Shown: one piece after another, positions 182 to 62,203 of the stretch
How positions within the stretch are numbered: the first letter of the stretch is position 1
Layout of the letters: each line of letters starts with the position of its first letter
IMG/VR virus record: IMGVR_UViG_3300032073_000008
Span: 46,318 to 110,317 of that record
Length of the DNA: 64,000 nucleotides
Source: a virus
Strand: one strand, 5' to 3'
The notes under the pieces: generated by a model
What the model saw: the letters and a program-made list of their open reading frames with translations, nothing else
Databases searched by the model: none
What the model was told of the DNA's origin: nothing
Made by a program: the position numbers and the translations under genes

Positions 182-210
182 ATTATATCGTATTACTGAA
201 TTGTAGTCAA
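182..210 (-). promoter_or_regulatory. sigma70-type early promoter for uvsY
   Basis: Minus strand TTGACT-17 nt-TATAAT. Confidence 0.7.
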
Positions 211-714
211 CTCATATTTCCTATAATTAAAACTGACTTGGGCTGAAAGATAATCAACATCAGAGTTCTCTATACTAAACTCTAATGATGAAAGATTAGT
301 TGGGTACATATCAACAAATTTAACTTCAATATTTGGTGTCATGGCTGCAGTCGTGATAATCATTGAACCATCAGAATATATATTACCAGTGTTGTCTTTA
401 GTTCTTCCAAGAGCCTTTGATTGATCAAAACTGTCTGGATAACCAAGACCAATCAACCAATCGTATATTTCAGAAAAGTTTTTCATATCTTCATCAACGC
501 GGAATGTTAATTGCAACGCACCAAAGTCTAGCTTGTCACCTGGAATTGGAAGTTTCGCGAATGGATTTTGAACTTCAGTTGGTGCACTAAGAGAGATATC
601 AGGTATCGCTGCAGCAGTACAAAAATAATTTACATGTGGCAATCTTTGTACGCTGAATCTAAACCCTATTGGAGAAAGAAAACTTTTATTTGTTGGTTGT
701 GATGGAACAGTCAT
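193..714 (-). CDS. gp3: Tail completion / sheath stabilizer gp3 (tail-tube fold)
   Basis: N-terminal FLSPIGFRF...PHVNYFC...IP motif, FRVDEDMKN, SDGSMII; position between gp23 and uvsY. Confidence 0.8.
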   Translation of the reverse strand: MTVPSQPTNKSFLSPIGFRFSVQRLPHVNYFCTAAAIPDISLSAPTEVQNPFAKLPIPGDKLDFGALQLTFRVDEDMKNFSEIYDWLIGLGYPDSFDQSKALGRTKDNTGNIYSDGSMIITTAAMTPNIEVKFVDMYPTNLSSLEFSIENSDVDYLSAQVSFNYRKYELTTIQ

Positions 715-740: not shown

Positions 741-748
741 TATTTATA
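741..748 (-). promoter_or_regulatory. T4-type late promoter for gp3
   Basis: TATAAATA on the minus strand ~27 nt upstream of the start. Confidence 0.7.
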
Positions 749-754
749 ATCAAT

Positions 755-783
755 AAAAAAAGGGGAATATTAAACTCCCCTTT
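755..783 (-). terminator. Intrinsic terminator after the YRGV peptide gene
   Basis: AGGGGAG...TTCCCCT stem followed by a T run on the minus strand. Confidence 0.75.
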
Positions 784-800
784 CTTCCACGCACTAACAA

Positions 801-899
801 TTAACTGACCTTAACACCTCTGTAAACACGCTCAGATCTAGTTTTATTTTTGGCAGATTTTTTAGGTGCAACTCGCACACCACGATATATAATAGTCAT
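801..899 (-). CDS. 32-aa basic peptide with two YRGV motifs (DUF4278-like)
   Basis: MTIIYRGVRVAPKKSAKNKTRSERVYRGVKVS*, SD AGGAGA; directly downstream of a glnA-type riboswitch, the usual context for YRG peptides. Not in the ORF track. Confidence 0.8.
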   Translation of the reverse strand: MTIIYRGVRVAPKKSAKNKTRSERVYRGVKVS

Positions 900-927
900 A
901 GCTATCTCCTATAGTTAAATAAAAGAT

Positions 928-980
928 GCGTTCCTTCGACACAATTGTCTACTTCCGTTCACTTATAGTGAATGAACGAT
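928..980 (-). ncRNA. Glutamine riboswitch (glnA RNA motif, glutamine-I class)
   Basis: Minus strand ATCGTTCA-TTCACT ATA AGTGAA-CGGAAGTA-GACA ATTG TGTC-GAAGGAACGC: P1 CGTTC/GAACG, P2 and P3 hairpins, conserved GGAAGTA/GAAG junction. Confidence 0.85.
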
Positions 981-1033
981 GTAGTCTTTTGACCGATGAC
1001 TTATCGGAGCATATCAGAATAGATATACACCAT

Positions 1034-1041
1034 TATTTATA
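1034..1041 (-). promoter_or_regulatory. Late promoter upstream of the riboswitch
   Basis: TATAAATA immediately after the gp23 terminator. Confidence 0.65.
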
Positions 1042-1046
1042 AGAAT

Positions 1047-1074
1047 AAAAAAAGAGGCTCCGAAGAGCCTCTTA
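1047..1074 (-). terminator. Intrinsic terminator of the major capsid gene
   Basis: AAGAGGCTC-TTCG-GAGCCTCTT followed by a T run; cUUCGg tetraloop typical of T4-like phages. Confidence 0.9.
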
Positions 1075-1106: not shown

Positions 1107-2474
1107 TTATACCAAGTTAGCAACTTTAACGCGACGGTAGTAAGAGTTTTTACTAGCAAAGTTAACAGCACTTGCAGCAAATGGGTTCGCAACCATGCCG
1201 TAGCGAGTTTTGAAACCGATTTTTGGTTGGAAGGTATTCTCACCAACCGCACGAACCATTTGTAGAGGCACATATGGGCAGTAGAATAAACCAGCATCAA
1301 AGGCACTATCACCTTTGTAACCAATAGTGAAGTAGTTGTTAGTTGTATCAGAGAAGTATGGATCAATGTATACTTTGATACGACCATTTAATACACCAGC
1401 GAAAGTGTTACCAGTGTCATCTACTTGCAAGTTGTTGCTAAGTGCAGGAGCATAGTCAAGAACACCAGCCATTTGAAGAGCAGAAGCTACATCAGATGAA
1501 GTGATCAAAACATTACCTTTACCGCGACGAGTTGCTTTACCGATTGCGTTAGCTTCACGCTCGATTTGGAACATTAAGCCTTTGAACTTCTCAACAGACC
1601 AGCGACCGTTTGAGTCAGTGTCTAGATCGAAAACACCATTATTAGTTACAAGACCTTGTGCACCGATAGTAGCAGTGTAGTTGATAGTACGAACAACTTC
1701 ACGGTTAATTTCAGCAAGGATCTCAGTAGATAAGATGTTGCTTAACTCTTGCTCAGCATCTAAACCATGGACAGCTTTAAGATCTTGAGCTAATTCCATA
1801 GTGTATTCTGCTTTTAACGCACGAGATACAGCTGTTACACTGATTTTCTCGATAGAGAACGCCATTTCAGCAAAAGAGTTACCAGCTGCATCGCCAAGAG
1901 CTTCAGCAGTAGCAGTTGACATACCAGTGTGAACAGTATAGCCAGAACCAGAAGCAGCTTCAGTTGCATCTTGACCAGCTTGAGTAGTACCAGCAGCACC
2001 ATCGATTACACCACCGAAGTTTGCTGTGTTAGCAGTCTCACTACCGATTGCAGAGAATGAAGTGTCAGCTTCGTTAAATAAGGCTTCAGTACCAGCTTGA
2101 GTATTGAGGCGTGATTTCATCGCAAAGATAAGACCAGTTGGACCAGTCATTGGCTGTACGCCACAAATATCATAAGCGATAAGGTTAGGCATTGAGCGAC
2201 GCACTAAGCTGATTAGGACAGGATCGAAAGTATCGACACTACCGTCACCAGCAGTAGAGCTAGATGCACCCATTGCGTTTACTGGTGCTGCTTCGCCTAA
2301 AAGCGAAGGAGCGTGAGCACCGCCAGACTGAGCAGATTGCTCAGCTGCAGCTCGTTCTTGGTTTTCTAAAAGAGTTGCAACAGTTGAACGCTTGTGAGCG
2401 TCAGTGATCGAAGGAAGATCAGCGTGCTCAAGAACAGGTTGCCACTTCTTTTGTAGACTATCAGATTGAATCAT
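1107..2474 (-). CDS. gp23: Major capsid protein
   Basis: KWQPVLEH, LVRRSMPNLIAYDICGVQPMTGPTGLIFAM, SRALKAEYTMELAQDLKAVHGLDAE, FQPKIGFKTRYG. Confidence 0.99.
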   Translation of the reverse strand: MIQSDSLQKKWQPVLEHADLPSITDAHKRSTVATLLENQERAAAEQSAQSGGAHAPSLLGEAAPVNAMGASSSTAGDGSVDTFDPVLISLVRRSMPNLIAYDICGVQPMTGPTGLIFAMKSRLNTQAGTEALFNEADTSFSAIGSETANTANFGGVIDGAAGTTQAGQDATEAASGSGYTVHTGMSTATAEALGDAAGNSFAEMAFSIEKISVTAVSRALKAEYTMELAQDLKAVHGLDAEQELSNILSTEILAEINREVVRTINYTATIGAQGLVTNNGVFDLDTDSNGRWSVEKFKGLMFQIEREANAIGKATRRGKGNVLITSSDVASALQMAGVLDYAPALSNNLQVDDTGNTFAGVLNGRIKVYIDPYFSDTTNNYFTIGYKGDSAFDAGLFYCPYVPLQMVRAVGENTFQPKIGFKTRYGMVANPFAASAVNFASKNSYYRRVKVANLV

Positions 2475-2531: not shown

Positions 2532-3608
2532 TTACTTTTTAATGCTTTTTGAAATGGCATTCAAGTACGCACTCATGCTAGGATCAGCATGATTTGTCTC
2601 TTCAGTTAATTCATCTAACTCAAGAGGCTCTTCATCGACAACCACTTGCTCAGCGACAACTTCTTCTTTAGGGAAGTAGCTCTCTTTGAGTGTCTCTAAC
2701 TTTTCAGCATATGAATCTTCATCTTCAAACTCTACGCCTTCAGACAAAGAAGCCAGCTTAACGGCTTGAGACTCTGTGATATCTTCGCAAGCAGAAGCTA
2801 AGATCGCAGATTTCTTTGACTCAACTAATTCTTTGCGAAGAACGATGTTTCTTTCCATTTCTTCATTGATTGAAGATTCGAGCTCAGTAACCTTAGATGC
2901 TAATTCATCAACAAGGTCAACTTTCTCTTCTGGAATATCGATGTAGTTTTCAGTGAACAGACTGCGTAAACCAGTCATGAAGTTCTCAACGATTTCTGCT
3001 CGAACTCCTTGCTCAACTGCTAACTCATTTTCTTGCATCCACTCTTCAGCGACATACTCTAAGTAGTCATCTAAGCGTGATGAAAGAGATTCATTAATGG
3101 TAGATTTTTCTGCTTCAAGTTCTGCTTCAAAATCAACAGTAACAGATTCTAAAACTTCGTTGACTTTTGAAACTACTGCAGCTTCAAAGATAGTTGTAGC
3201 TTTTGATACAAAATCTTCTGAAAGATCTTGACCACCAAACATTGCTTCAACATCTTCAGCGATAGATACATCTTCAGCACTAATCTGACGGATTTCTTTG
3301 ATAGATTGTGTATCAGCTTCTTCTGAAACTTCTTCAGCTTCAAAACCTTCAACCTTCAAAGATGCCATAACCTTACCATAGTTTGCTGCGATGTCGTCTT
3401 TCTTCATGCCTTTAACAGCATCCATCATAGCATTGATCATACCAACTTTTGTTTTGGGAGCAGGCACTTGTTTAGGAGCACCCTTCTTAATTTCTGCAGC
3501 ATTGTCGTCAGCGATTTTTTCGCCATCAACTTCTGGTGCAGCATTCGCTTCTTCGAGAGCGTCATCAGTTTGCTCAACTTCTACACCCTCTAGTTCTAAA
3601 TCAGACAT
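2532..3608 (-). CDS. gp22: Prohead core scaffolding protein
   Basis: Acidic coiled coil, LSEDFVSKATTIFEAAV, YLEYVAEEWMQENELAVE, LETLKESYF; synteny. Confidence 0.95.
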   Translation of the reverse strand: MSDLELEGVEVEQTDDALEEANAAPEVDGEKIADDNAAEIKKGAPKQVPAPKTKVGMINAMMDAVKGMKKDDIAANYGKVMASLKVEGFEAEEVSEEADTQSIKEIRQISAEDVSIAEDVEAMFGGQDLSEDFVSKATTIFEAAVVSKVNEVLESVTVDFEAELEAEKSTINESLSSRLDDYLEYVAEEWMQENELAVEQGVRAEIVENFMTGLRSLFTENYIDIPEEKVDLVDELASKVTELESSINEEMERNIVLRKELVESKKSAILASACEDITESQAVKLASLSEGVEFEDEDSYAEKLETLKESYFPKEEVVAEQVVVDEEPLELDELTEETNHADPSMSAYLNAISKSIKK

Positions 3609-6823: not shown

Positions 6824-7369
6824 CTAAATTCCGCCAGCGTTTCCAGTAACACCGCCAGATACTTCCCAATAATCATATTGGAATGTCACAGTGTACTCTT
6901 GGATTGCATCACTATCCCATGCTAAGTCGATGGTGCCAACTTCAGATGGATACAAGCCAACAAAGTTATAAACACGGAGTATAGCACCGTCTTTACCAAA
7001 CTGTGTTACTTGTGCATTAGCTTTATATAGGCTTGGAGCAGAGCCAGACTGATTAACATTACCTTGAGCAGTGTTAATTGAGTTTGACCATGCTTCCATA
7101 GCATTTCGGACTGCGAAGTCTTCGTCATTAATAATAGTTGGTGCCCATTCAGCATAAGTACGATTACCAGCCAACTTAATTTGACGACCGAAGTATGGAA
7201 CTTCAACCGTACCAAGCGTAGAGGCAGGTATTTGTGCAGCCTTTGTCATAAAAGGCACTTGTGCATCAGCAACACCGTTAATTGGATTTGTAATCTGGAC
7301 TTGGAAGAGTGATGCTCTTGCACCACCCCCAGTTAAAGCTCCAGCAAAATCATTTACATTAAACGCCAT
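6824..7369 (-). CDS. gp19: Tail tube protein
   Basis: GGARASLFQV, VPYFGRQIKLAGNRTYAEW, INDEDF, FQYDYW. Confidence 0.95.
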   Translation of the reverse strand: MAFNVNDFAGALTGGGARASLFQVQITNPINGVADAQVPFMTKAAQIPASTLGTVEVPYFGRQIKLAGNRTYAEWAPTIINDEDFAVRNAMEAWSNSINTAQGNVNQSGSAPSLYKANAQVTQFGKDGAILRVYNFVGLYPSEVGTIDLAWDSDAIQEYTVTFQYDYWEVSGGVTGNAGGI

Positions 7370-60312: not shown

Positions 60313-61215
60313 TTAGTCTTCTTCAGCTAATTTTTCAAAGAAAGATAAAGAGTCATCTTCATCCGCAGATGCTACAGCTGTCGGCTCTTGTGGAGCTTCC
60401 ATGACTGGTGCAGCTTTGGGTGCTTCAAACGGTGTGTCATCCATAGCACTTGCTGTTGGAGCAGGTGCACCAGTTAGACCTAACACACGCTTCATCTTTG
60501 CTTCTAATTCAGCATAAGACTTGAAGTTCTTGCGATCAAGAAATGCTTGTAAAGAGTATAAACCTTCATACACTTTTTCAAGAGCATCATCATCGCCATC
60601 AAGCAATTCACTGGCTGAATCAAACTCAGATTTATCATAGTTGCGATATCCTTCAACTTGACGAATCTTTAATTTAAAGTCAGCACCTTCCCAGAAATCA
60701 AATGGGTTGATTGCTTGCTCATCTTCAAAAGCTGGATTCATAGCTTCATTCAGCTTATCAAAGATTTTCTTACCAAACTTATAAAGGAAAACTTTTCCTT
60801 CATTAGCAGGGTTTGCTGGATCCTTAACAACCATGATGTTAGCAGTATAAGACAATCGTCTTTTCTGCTTTCGTGCTTGTTCTTTACCAGCATCAGTGCC
60901 GTTGTTCCAAAGCTGAGAGTTGAACTCACCAACTGGATCTTTTTCACCGATAGTTGTTAAAGAGTTTTCGATGTACCAACCGCCAGTACCTTGAAAGCCA
61001 TGATCAAAGATACGAACCCATGGAAGATCTTCGCCTTTTGGCTCTGGTAAAAAACGGATAACAGCATAACCATTACCAGCTTTGTCGACTTCTGGTTTCC
61101 AGAAACGATCATCACCTTTAGATTGAGTATTGCTGTTTAGTTTAGAAGACTCGCTGATCAGTTTATCAAGTGAACCGCTACGAGATTTTTTGAGTGTTGC
61201 AAATGAACTAGCCAT
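60313..61215 (-). CDS. gp32: Single-stranded DNA-binding protein
   Basis: DDRFWKP, GNGYAVIRFLP, WYIENSLTT, FGKKIFDK, NYDKSEF, acidic tail. Confidence 0.97.
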   Translation of the reverse strand: MASSFATLKKSRSGSLDKLISESSKLNSNTQSKGDDRFWKPEVDKAGNGYAVIRFLPEPKGEDLPWVRIFDHGFQGTGGWYIENSLTTIGEKDPVGEFNSQLWNNGTDAGKEQARKQKRRLSYTANIMVVKDPANPANEGKVFLYKFGKKIFDKLNEAMNPAFEDEQAINPFDFWEGADFKLKIRQVEGYRNYDKSEFDSASELLDGDDDALEKVYEGLYSLQAFLDRKNFKSYAELEAKMKRVLGLTGAPAPTASAMDDTPFEAPKAAPVMEAPQEPTAVASADEDDSLSFFEKLAEED

Positions 61216-61353: not shown

Positions 61354-61989
61354 CTAATATATTTTCAGCACAATAGACTTTAATTTCTTATTGTCTATTG
61401 GTGAAAATTCTCTTATGAATGGAGTATAATTTTTGATAAGTTTTATTGTCTCATTTAAAACAATATCATCATACTTCTTCCATTGTTGTGTATAGTTAAG
61501 TAACTGGTCTAATAGAACCAATGTTTCTAAACTAATTTTATTCTGTGCATAATGGCGATAGAGTATTGGGTGTGATCCGTCTTTCATTACAAACAACTCA
61601 TCAAATGATTCTTCGACATTATAAAGATAATCTATTTCTTCAGAGAACATGTATGAGAGTGTTTCTATTTTCCTATTCCATTCACCTATCATTCCATAAT
61701 AGTCAGCACCAAACATATTTCCAATCCATGGCTTAGAGCCAGATGTATAGTGTGCGACCAAAAACTTTAAAAACTTTTTCTGCGAAAACTTCCTAGATGC
61801 TTTCTCAAAGAAATACTTATCTTTGCGAGAGATGTATGAAGTTTCATTTGCTCTTACTTGACCATTGTATTTAAAATAATCATAAGAGTCTCTTGTAAAA
61901 TGTTGCTGTACTGCTAAGTAAGTTTTGTAACAATCAAATCCAGACATATTCGGTTTATCATCTTCCATATTAAAGTGGTAATCTTGCAC
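61354..61989 (-). CDS. gp59: Helicase loader
   Basis: YKTYLAVQQHFT, YDYFKYNG, RKDKYFFEK, ISLETLVLLD; upstream of gp32. Confidence 0.88.
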   Translation of the reverse strand: MQDYHFNMEDDKPNMSGFDCYKTYLAVQQHFTRDSYDYFKYNGQVRANETSYISRKDKYFFEKASRKFSQKKFLKFLVAHYTSGSKPWIGNMFGADYYGMIGEWNRKIETLSYMFSEEIDYLYNVEESFDELFVMKDGSHPILYRHYAQNKISLETLVLLDQLLNYTQQWKKYDDIVLNETIKLIKNYTPFIREFSPIDNKKLKSIVLKIY

Positions 61990-62203
61990 CTTTTGCTAAG
62001 AAGTTTAGATCTTGAGCTTCAACCTCTAACTTACCTTTAATTGTTGTATTGACCAACTTTGCTGCAATCTCAATCTCTAACCCATTTTTCTCACAATACC
62101 ATATAATAGCATCAAGATATGATATTCTTTTTTCAATAACAGTTTTCTCTATGATAGCTGAAAACTTTGATGTTGACATAACTTCAACCATTATTTCTCC
62201 CAC
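61970..62203 (-). CDS. gp33: Late transcription coactivator
   Basis: FSAIIE...YLDAIIWYCEKN...IKGKLEVEAQDLNFL. Confidence 0.88.
   Translation of the reverse strand: MGEIMVEVMSTSKFSAIIEKTVIEKRISYLDAIIWYCEKNGLEIEIAAKLVNTTIKGKLEVEAQDLNFLAKGARLPL

Follow-up and report, generated by a model that had tools for sequence, protein, structure and literature searches.

What occupies the short interval that separates gp23, which encodes the major capsid protein, from a gp3-like tail gene in virus record IMGVR_UViG_3300032073_000008, which comes from an uncultured marine T4-like phage, and what might it do during infection? The DNA analyzed, referred to below as the window, is 64,000 nucleotides (nt) long and corresponds to positions 46,318-110,317 of this record, a contig of 110 kb. 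Coordinates are window positions, and all elements of the cassette are on the minus strand. An earlier sequence-only reading had proposed a self-contained late unit, consisting of a promoter at 1034-1041, an extra hairpin (CCGAT-AAGTC-ATCGG) at ~994-1008, a glnA-type aptamer at 928-980, a Shine-Dalgarno (SD) sequence, a peptide with two YRGV motifs and a terminator. All of these were found, either where that reading had placed them or at most 1-2 nt away. Three further elements were absent from it: a hairpin at 1028-1009, the AAAAGACUAC linker at 990-981 and an SD-sequestering helix formed by 929-919 with 912-901. Our answer, held with good confidence, is that the interval contains a self-contained mobile cassette in a gp23-gp3 hot spot, from which a late mRNA would be made whose glutamine ON switch gates a DUF4278-type microprotein. 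Proceeding from gp23 to the gp3-like gene, the order on the minus strand is gp23 terminator, TATAAATA, two hairpins, linker, aptamer, anti-SD helix, open reading frame (ORF), terminator and the next TATAAATA. The elements of the cassette are as follows.

1034-1041, minus strand: late promoter of the cassette, T4-type TATAAATA (motif scan)
1009-1028, minus strand: hairpin A, 7-bp stem, at the predicted 5' end of the transcript (predicted folds)
993-1007, minus strand: hairpin B, CCGAU-AAGUC-AUCGG, conserved in 36 leaders and in SAR86 chromosomal units
981-990, minus strand: A-rich single-stranded linker AAAAGACUAC, invariant columns in the 36-sequence alignment, common to SAR86 units
925-980, minus strand: glutamine riboswitch aptamer, type 1 glnA motif with P1, P2 and P3 (Rfam RF01739)
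901-929, minus strand: predicted expression platform, aptamer 3' tail and U-rich tract (929-919) against the SD region (912-901) (minimum free energy [MFE] and centroid folds, covariation)
909-906, minus strand: SD sequence GGAG, 6 nt 5' of the AUG at 899
801-899, minus strand: ORF for a basic microprotein of 32 amino acids (aa) with two YRGV motifs, stop codon at 803-801 (ORF list)
755-787, minus strand: terminator of the cassette, stem GGGGAG...CCCC followed by T7, right-hand copy of the composite junction (terminator scan)

To establish whether the RNA belongs to the glutamine riboswitches, the Rfam covariance-model check proposed by the earlier reading was run. The RF01739 match spans 980-925 and the full model (positions 1-53 of 53), scoring 59.6 bits (E 1.3e-10; gathering score 35). 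This is the sole Rfam match in the window and the sole RF01739 copy in the 110-kb contig. Every conserved consensus nucleotide was matched, including the junction and tail ACGGAAGUA and GAAGGAACGCAUC, both of which are invariant in an alignment of 36 sequences of the closest family. Homologues score 52-61 bits. Pairing in P1, P2 and P3 is 100% across the 36 homologues, with compensatory changes in P2 (UA to CG in 11 sequences) and in P3 (GC to AU in 7 and in 15 sequences). For the whole structure, 95.1% of alignment cells are paired versus 27-49% when the partners are slid, and double-sided changes number 36 versus 14.4 ± 3.0 in shuffles (0/500). By family, the aptamer is thus classed as a bona fide glnA-type glutamine aptamer, and ligand binding is predicted.

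The aptamer is preceded by a promoter-to-aptamer leader of ~48 nt that is common to the window and to loci L032 and L065. A pattern in which the linker is joined to the aptamer matched 25 viral contigs and 50 metagenome contigs. Hairpin B, located at 1007-993 and kept in 36 homologous leaders, and the linker are nearly invariant in phage copies, the hairpin B stem being either CCGAU/AUCGG or CCAU/AUGG. Hairpin A lies directly 3' of TATAAATA in phage copies and is formed by at least nine different stem sequences, all of which form a hairpin at this place. It was scored by folding each leader and comparing it with shuffles (MAFFT fails to align stems with differing loop lengths); 25/32 unique leaders fold in this region with z < -1.5. 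The ORFs behind leader-type phage cassettes contain two or three YRG repeats.

Within 925-990, two alternative pairings are also possible. One could join CUAC in the linker to GUAG in the aptamer, both of which are invariant; the other could join the 5' strand of P1 (CGUUCA) to UGAACG on the 3' side of P2. Jointly these form the MFE hairpin if the tertiary contacts of the glutamine-bound state are ignored.

How might glutamine control the ORF? The helix between 929-919 and 912-901, which sequesters the SD sequence, is present in both the MFE and the centroid structure. For comparison, a collection made with a strict pattern contained at least 120 aptamer-bearing IMG/VR contigs (L007-L126), giving 87 unique units among the matches listed. 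Most of these 87 have the same SD-sequestering hairpin, and its two strands covary (GCACC/GGUGU, GCAUC/GAUGU and GCGCC/GGUGC). Duplexes between tail and SD have a mean energy of -7.23 kcal/mol for a unit's own partners versus -5.15 ± 0.16 kcal/mol for swapped partners, and 0/1000 permutations reach the value for own partners; with one representative for each distinct tail (26), 0/2000 permutations reach it. In the 36-sequence alignment, 89% of the cells of the anti-SD helix are paired. Transcription attenuation was considered and rejected, as neither the sequence nor the terminator scan shows a terminator-like U-run hairpin between aptamer and ORF.

Klahn et al. 2018 found that the glnA aptamer before gifB raises translation with glutamine, and proposed that its tail forms a long-range G-C pair when glutamine is bound and otherwise pairs with the ribosome binding site (RBS) (PMC6212724). 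Because the phage unit has exactly this gifB-type arrangement of tail and RBS, a translational ON switch for glutamine is the best reading, its polarity being inferred by homology to the tested gifB riboswitch. An OFF switch is very unlikely, as is a switch that affects transcription or RNA stability and not the initiation of translation. Such a switch would draw on the same dependence of polarity on homology and on the alternative pairings CUAC/GUAG and CGUUCA/UGAACG, and structural work on the related type-2 motif reportedly raised an OFF reading. However, the aptamer-ORF interval holds no U-run terminator-like hairpin, the sole conserved and covarying helix downstream sequesters the SD sequence using the tail that the bound aptamer needs, and reporters under either aptamer type were induced by nitrogen or glutamine.

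The translational ON switch would then work as follows. A gp55/gp33-type late promoter, TATAAATA, would start a short mRNA carrying the terminal hairpin, the second conserved hairpin, the invariant A-rich linker and the type-1 glutamine aptamer. Without glutamine, the aptamer 3' tail and the U-rich tract would pair with the SD sequence and block initiation. When glutamine is bound, the tail would be drawn into the long-range G-C contact of the aptamer, the blocking helix would melt and the 32-aa microprotein would be translated. The intrinsic terminator would end the unit.

What kind of protein would be translated? The ORF (899-801) follows the GGAG at 909-906 and is itself followed by the terminator at 787-755. 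The window has one AUG for it, at 899; in relatives with GGAGAUG, the YRG frame begins at the next AUG. The peptide is strongly basic, with ten K/R, one E and a net charge of ~+9, and contains two YRGV motifs. Pfam DUF4278 (PF14105) matches peptide residues 1-29 at profile positions 1-31 of 57 (17.8 bits, E 0.0045). Among aligned phage YRG peptides, 16/17 match PF14105 at E <= 0.01 (best 3e-9), and Y5, R6, G7 and G28 are invariant. The nearest clusters in the protein Atlas are 89-97% DUF4278, with 187-197 features in common. The ORF is conserved at the protein level: relative to the near-identical unit of locus L392, the YRG codons carry synonymous changes only, while linker residues vary. An AlphaFold2 model built from the YRG alignment has four short strands, with one beta-hairpin per YRG motif (mean predicted local distance difference test score, pLDDT, 71.8). 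A profile search of the PDB with the same alignment gave chance-level matches only (E > 0.3). The peptide is assigned as a short DUF4278-type microprotein on the strength of the profile match, the Atlas clusters and the relatives, as the sequence-only reading had supposed.

Whether this microprotein inactivates glutamine synthetase (GS) is a separate question. IF7 and IF17 bind GS through arginines. DUF4278 corresponds to the N-terminal part of IF17, and the GS-inactivating part is the IF7-like C-terminus (PMC6212724). No IF7-like C-terminal region fits in the peptide, since the DUF4278 match takes up all 32 aa; the same caveat of a missing IF7 region applies to short Prochlorococcus proteins discussed by Klahn et al. 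(PMC6212724). Because there is no room for this region, it is the riboswitch association alone that labels the peptide as a nitrogen regulator. The earlier proposal of a regulator of nitrogen assimilation or lysis timing is not supported for a peptide that spans just the DUF4278 part of IF17, and a role as GS inhibitor is only conjecture. A fuller form of this idea, in which the microprotein is a functional analogue of IF7/IF17 and the phage shuts off host GS at high glutamine, saving ATP and glutamate for virions, is unlikely. In its favor, glutamine riboswitches of cyanobacteria are found almost exclusively upstream of DUF4278 genes (PMC6212724), the peptide is strongly basic, and among the matches listed every other family behind phage aptamers also consists of small basic peptides. 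Against it, the alignment to DUF4278 positions 1-31 leaves out any IF7-like C-terminal region, and phage Melnitz has a riboswitch-peptide unit though its host is reported to be without glnA (PMC9004378). The microprotein may nevertheless act on some host target linked to nitrogen status.

Is the unit an old part of this genome or an insertion? Its neighbors are listed below.

1107-2474, minus strand: gp23 major capsid gene (Pfam Gp23 PF07068, E 2.1e-147), upstream neighbor
1044-1073, minus strand: intrinsic terminator of gp23 (stem 1073-1052 plus T run), 9-bp stem with UUCG loop, left copy of the composite junction (terminator scan)
741-748, minus strand: late promoter TATAAATA for the gp3-like gene; cassette-free relatives have one promoter, its homologue
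193-714, minus strand: gp3-like tail gene, tail-tube fold (phrog_45 'tail tube', E 2.3e-34), downstream neighbor

The gene order gp21-gp22-gp23-(gp3-like)-UvsY-UvsW agrees with that of Mosig, Melnitz and locus L065. Among 80 IMG/VR relatives of the gp3-like gene that were fetched, the aptamer was found in none (0/80), and most have a gp23-gp3 gap of 90-120 nt. The closest of them, with a gp3-like gene 94% identical, have a gap of 112 nt versus 393 nt in the window. RF01739 was found nowhere in five long relatives (56-133 kb). When aligned, the sequences are identical through the gp23 terminator and TTATAAATA, after which the window has 281 extra nt; the gp23 terminator is kept in the cassette-free relatives L127-L133. 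The junction T7-ATT-N(1-2)-TTATAAATA is repeated at both ends of the insertion. At least eight other contigs, with gp23 56-70% identical, also have an aptamer cassette between gp23 and gp3; their aptamers are single or in tandem, and their peptides differ. In L392 and L389, the cassette lies after gp32 and is 86% identical over 306 nt (leader and aptamer ~95%), while gp32 of these loci is only 65% identical in aa to that of the window phage and their other genes are 45-48% identical. As judged from these gaps, junctions and identities, the unit is an insertion, a horizontally mobile cassette at a gp23-gp3 intergenic hot spot.

In four further loci (L334, L340, L350 and L351), the same leader and aptamer, again between gp23 and the gp3-like gene, are followed by an unrelated ORF of 32 aa with many Y, D and P residues. 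Evidently, one ORF can be swapped for another downstream of the switch. A different late-promoter cassette occupies the gp23-gp3 gap of the relatives L148-L156 and L160 (~2560-3000 of each locus). Its TATAAATA is accompanied by a possibly structured, GC-rich leader of ~130 nt, and it encodes a lipoprotein of ~70 aa whose lipobox reads L-T-A-C.

Movement of this kind has a precedent in the PeSL promoter-terminator motifs, which shuffle modules in T4-type phages (Arbiol et al. 2010, PMC2839356; Comeau et al. 2014, PMC4122927). As in PeSL modules, repeated terminator-plus-promoter junctions bound a small gene module that is polymorphic among close relatives and found at different sites. Unlike those of PeSL, the junction promoter here is the late TATAAATA and not an early sigma70-type promoter, and recombination is inferred from sequence. 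The cassette would thus work like a PeSL module but is not a member of that class, because its junction promoter is late.

A mobile unit could also be a selfish or neutral passenger, that is, a moron moved by terminator-promoter recombination that has no role in infection. Sporadic distribution (absence from the 80 relatives and from the five long ones) would suit such a passenger, as would the fact that the gap also takes unrelated cassettes such as that for the lipoprotein in L148-L156. We consider it highly improbable, however, since the aptamer, the platform and the YRG motifs have stayed intact under purifying selection, and since equivalent cassettes recur in many phage lineages, at no fewer than two sites and with several peptide families.

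Several points should be weighed against the functional mobile cassette preferred here. The polarity of the switch is based on homology and on a predicted helix of only ~-9 kcal/mol, and changes in the anti-SD helix within the closest family fall mainly on one strand. Hairpin B and the linker have no explained role in it and could join an alternative fold that alters the switch logic. The peptide's own DUF4278 score of 17.8 bits is below the gathering score of 25.3, and confidence in the AlphaFold2 model is only moderate. Finally, the cassette could be kept by strong selection rather than have been recently transferred.

When would the functional mobile cassette be expressed? The motif TATAAATA, present at 1041-1034 as the earlier reading had it, occurs 16 times in the window versus 5.7 ± 2.8 expected, with 15/16 copies on the coding (minus) strand; the whole contig has 20 copies on the minus strand and 1 on the plus strand. 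Copies lie just upstream of gp23, gp22 and the gp3-like gene. In phage cassettes, most have TATAAATA and the rest a one-base variant, 44-52 nt before the conserved linker, and SAR86 copies have a sigma70-type promoter at this place. A homologue of the late co-activator gp33 is encoded in the contig (E 1.7e-14, in a search that covered gp33). The fixed spacing in most homologous phage cassettes and the gp33 homologue bear out the view of a self-contained unit with its own late promoter, and late expression of the cassette is likely on this basis. Two distant genes are relevant here.

61973-62182, minus strand: gp33 homologue (E 1.7e-14)
60475-61197, minus strand: gp32, not followed here by a riboswitch cassette, unlike gp32 in L392 and L389

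How new is such a unit? Weinberg et al. 2010 (PMC2864571) described glutamine (glnA) RNAs from cyanobacteria and marine metagenomes, including copies in tandem and the short ORFs behind them. Such RNAs are also listed for T4-like cyanophages (PMC9964418, PMC9602691) and were reported in Methylophilales phage Melnitz, Pelagibacter phage Mosig and metagenome-assembled genomes (MAGs) of pelagimyophages (Buchholz et al. 2022, PMC9004378). Because these riboswitches have been published, the locus is not new in kind: phage glutamine riboswitches, the DUF4278 link and ON polarity are already in print, and the locus adds a member to a known kind. In the literature searched, we found no account of the conserved leader, the late-promoter cassette form or its mobility, nor of the recurrent gp23-gp3 site, the homology to SAR86 units or the small basic peptides that regularly follow phage aptamers.

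Compared with the type-1 riboswitch of gifB (IF17), the unit shares the RF01739 aptamer, its location in the 5' untranslated region of a DUF4278-type ORF and the tail-RBS pairing that implies a translational ON switch. It differs in being phage-borne, with a T4 late promoter where gifB has a host promoter under NtcA control, in having the extra conserved leader of ~48 nt (two hairpins and AAAAGACUAC), and in that its 32-aa ORF is without the IF7-like GS-binding part. The units of Melnitz and Mosig, two marine T4-like phages of heterotrophs, are similar: each has RF01739 (52.8 and 50 bits), then an SD-sequestering hairpin and a small basic ORF. Unlike the unit in the window, those of Melnitz, Mosig and the pelagimyophages lie close to genes for transfer-messenger RNA (tmRNA) or tRNA and not in the gp23-gp3 gap, and their peptides belong to other families, without YRG.

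Buchholz et al. assign the switch to control of the tmRNA and describe no downstream peptide (PMC9004378). In Melnitz (L005/L207, MZ577097.1 46398-46600), the annotated tmRNA shares its 3' end with part of the aptamer, which is followed by an unannotated plus-strand ORF of 32 aa from the basic W-C-[YF] family, at a place where an opposite-strand ORF is annotated. In Mosig (L006/L208, MT647606.1 92025-92250), the aptamer precedes Mosig_00116 (51 aa). Because both aptamers precede small ORFs, the published 'tmRNA controlled by a riboswitch' is probably a mis-assignment. Phage aptamers among the matches listed are almost always followed, 20-35 nt later, by a small basic peptide from one of several families. 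Behind those of L007-L126, there are at least five or six unrelated families of 16-65 aa, including YRG, W-C-[YF], a family ending in ...DPRLQxI, a 64-aa family with GTSGY, and MTKYQ...NP(F/W)Y, the last usually with tandem aptamers.

In what host would the phage read glutamine? The leader-aptamer pattern was searched for in 185,579 species-representative genomes and gave five matches, namely two in SAR86, two in other Gammaproteobacteria MAGs and one in a Neomarinimicrobiota-binned contig; none of the five is cyanobacterial. The SAR86 units start from a sigma70-type promoter and have the two hairpins and the linker seen in phage copies; their aptamers are in tandem (56.8 and 61.4 bits), and an anti-SD hairpin, a basic peptide of 43 aa and a terminator complete them. 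The window unit thus resembles the chromosomal units of SAR86 and other Gammaproteobacteria (L326-L328, L330) in its hairpin A, hairpin B with an xxGUC loop, AAAAGACUAC, aptamer, anti-SD hairpin, small basic peptide and terminator, whereas SAR86 units have a sigma70-type promoter in place of TATAAATA, tandem aptamers and a 43-aa peptide without YRG. In these comparisons, the closest cellular relatives of the cassette are found in SAR86-type heterotrophs and not in cyanobacteria.

The Neomarinimicrobiota match (L329, PBPT01000016.1, 335 kb, in a Candidatus Neomarinimicrobiota bin) has, at 6886-7144 of the locus, a tRNA-Asp and then TATAAATA with the leader and aptamer, the ORF here coding for 61 aa with three YRG repeats. 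This copy looks like DNA of a T4-like phage, mis-binned or integrated.

A cyanobacterial host, with the unit as an ordinary cyanophage glnA element, would fit the glnA RNAs listed for T4-like cyanophages (PMC9964418, PMC9602691), the 60-62% identity of gp23 to many cyanophage capsids and the fact that DUF4278 is best known from cyanobacteria. Isolates such as DLP_6, the pelagimyophages and Melnitz are equally near, however, gp23 being 61-64% identical to these and to cyanophages alike, and the capsids of phages with a leader-type cassette are closest to Melnitz and Mosig (70-75%). No Photo_RC gene (psbA/psbD) was found in the 110-kb contig or in the five relatives of 56-133 kb (~527 kb in all), and the leader was seen in SAR86, other Gammaproteobacteria MAGs and the one Neomarinimicrobiota-binned contig but in no cyanobacterial species genome. 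A cyanobacterial host is accordingly distinctly unlikely and a non-cyanobacterial one likely; a SAR86-like host is only a lead. Megablast of 20 kb gave no close isolate, and no tRNA genes were found in the window or contig (GC content 36.9%). The sequence-only reading had called the unit notable for such a host. The host part of this statement stands as likely, given six clade contigs in which no psbA was found and a leader common to Gammaproteobacteria and to Melnitz/pelagimyophage-like phages, but the notability is weakened by the glutamine riboswitches of heterotroph phages published in 2022 (PMC9004378).

A wider reading that joins these observations can be put forward tentatively. Marine T4-like phages of heterotrophs may share a mobile class of cassettes, each with a late promoter and a glutamine riboswitch that controls a small basic microprotein; the microproteins would be of at least five or six unrelated kinds. 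The present cassette would be a SAR86-type chromosomal unit whose promoter was swapped, with an undescribed conserved 5' extension (terminal hairpin, hairpin B and AAAAGACUAC). SAR86-like Gammaproteobacteria would be the source of the cassette or hosts of the phage clade, and the 'riboswitch-controlled tmRNA' of Melnitz would be one such unit.

The locus offers a clean example, fully mapped from promoter to terminator, of a phage metabolite-sensing RNA that would gate a microprotein late in infection. It suggests that the genes regulated by phage glutamine riboswitches are those for small basic peptides and not tmRNA or nitrogen enzymes. The shared leader ties an uncultured phage clade to SAR86-type bacteria, which have few virus-host links. 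The microproteins are short enough for synthesis, so that their targets, and hence what a phage gains from reading the host glutamine pool, are directly testable. Note that the riboswitch itself will not surprise a specialist; it is the biology of the cassette, its connection to SAR86 and the families of microproteins that merit follow-up.

Two minor observations concern the window itself. Terminator-like sites number 7 versus 1.5 expected. A plus-strand ORF of 38 aa at 926-1042, antisense to the aptamer and leader and with a similar counterpart in L389, was considered and rejected as a gene, being a by-product of RNA conservation.

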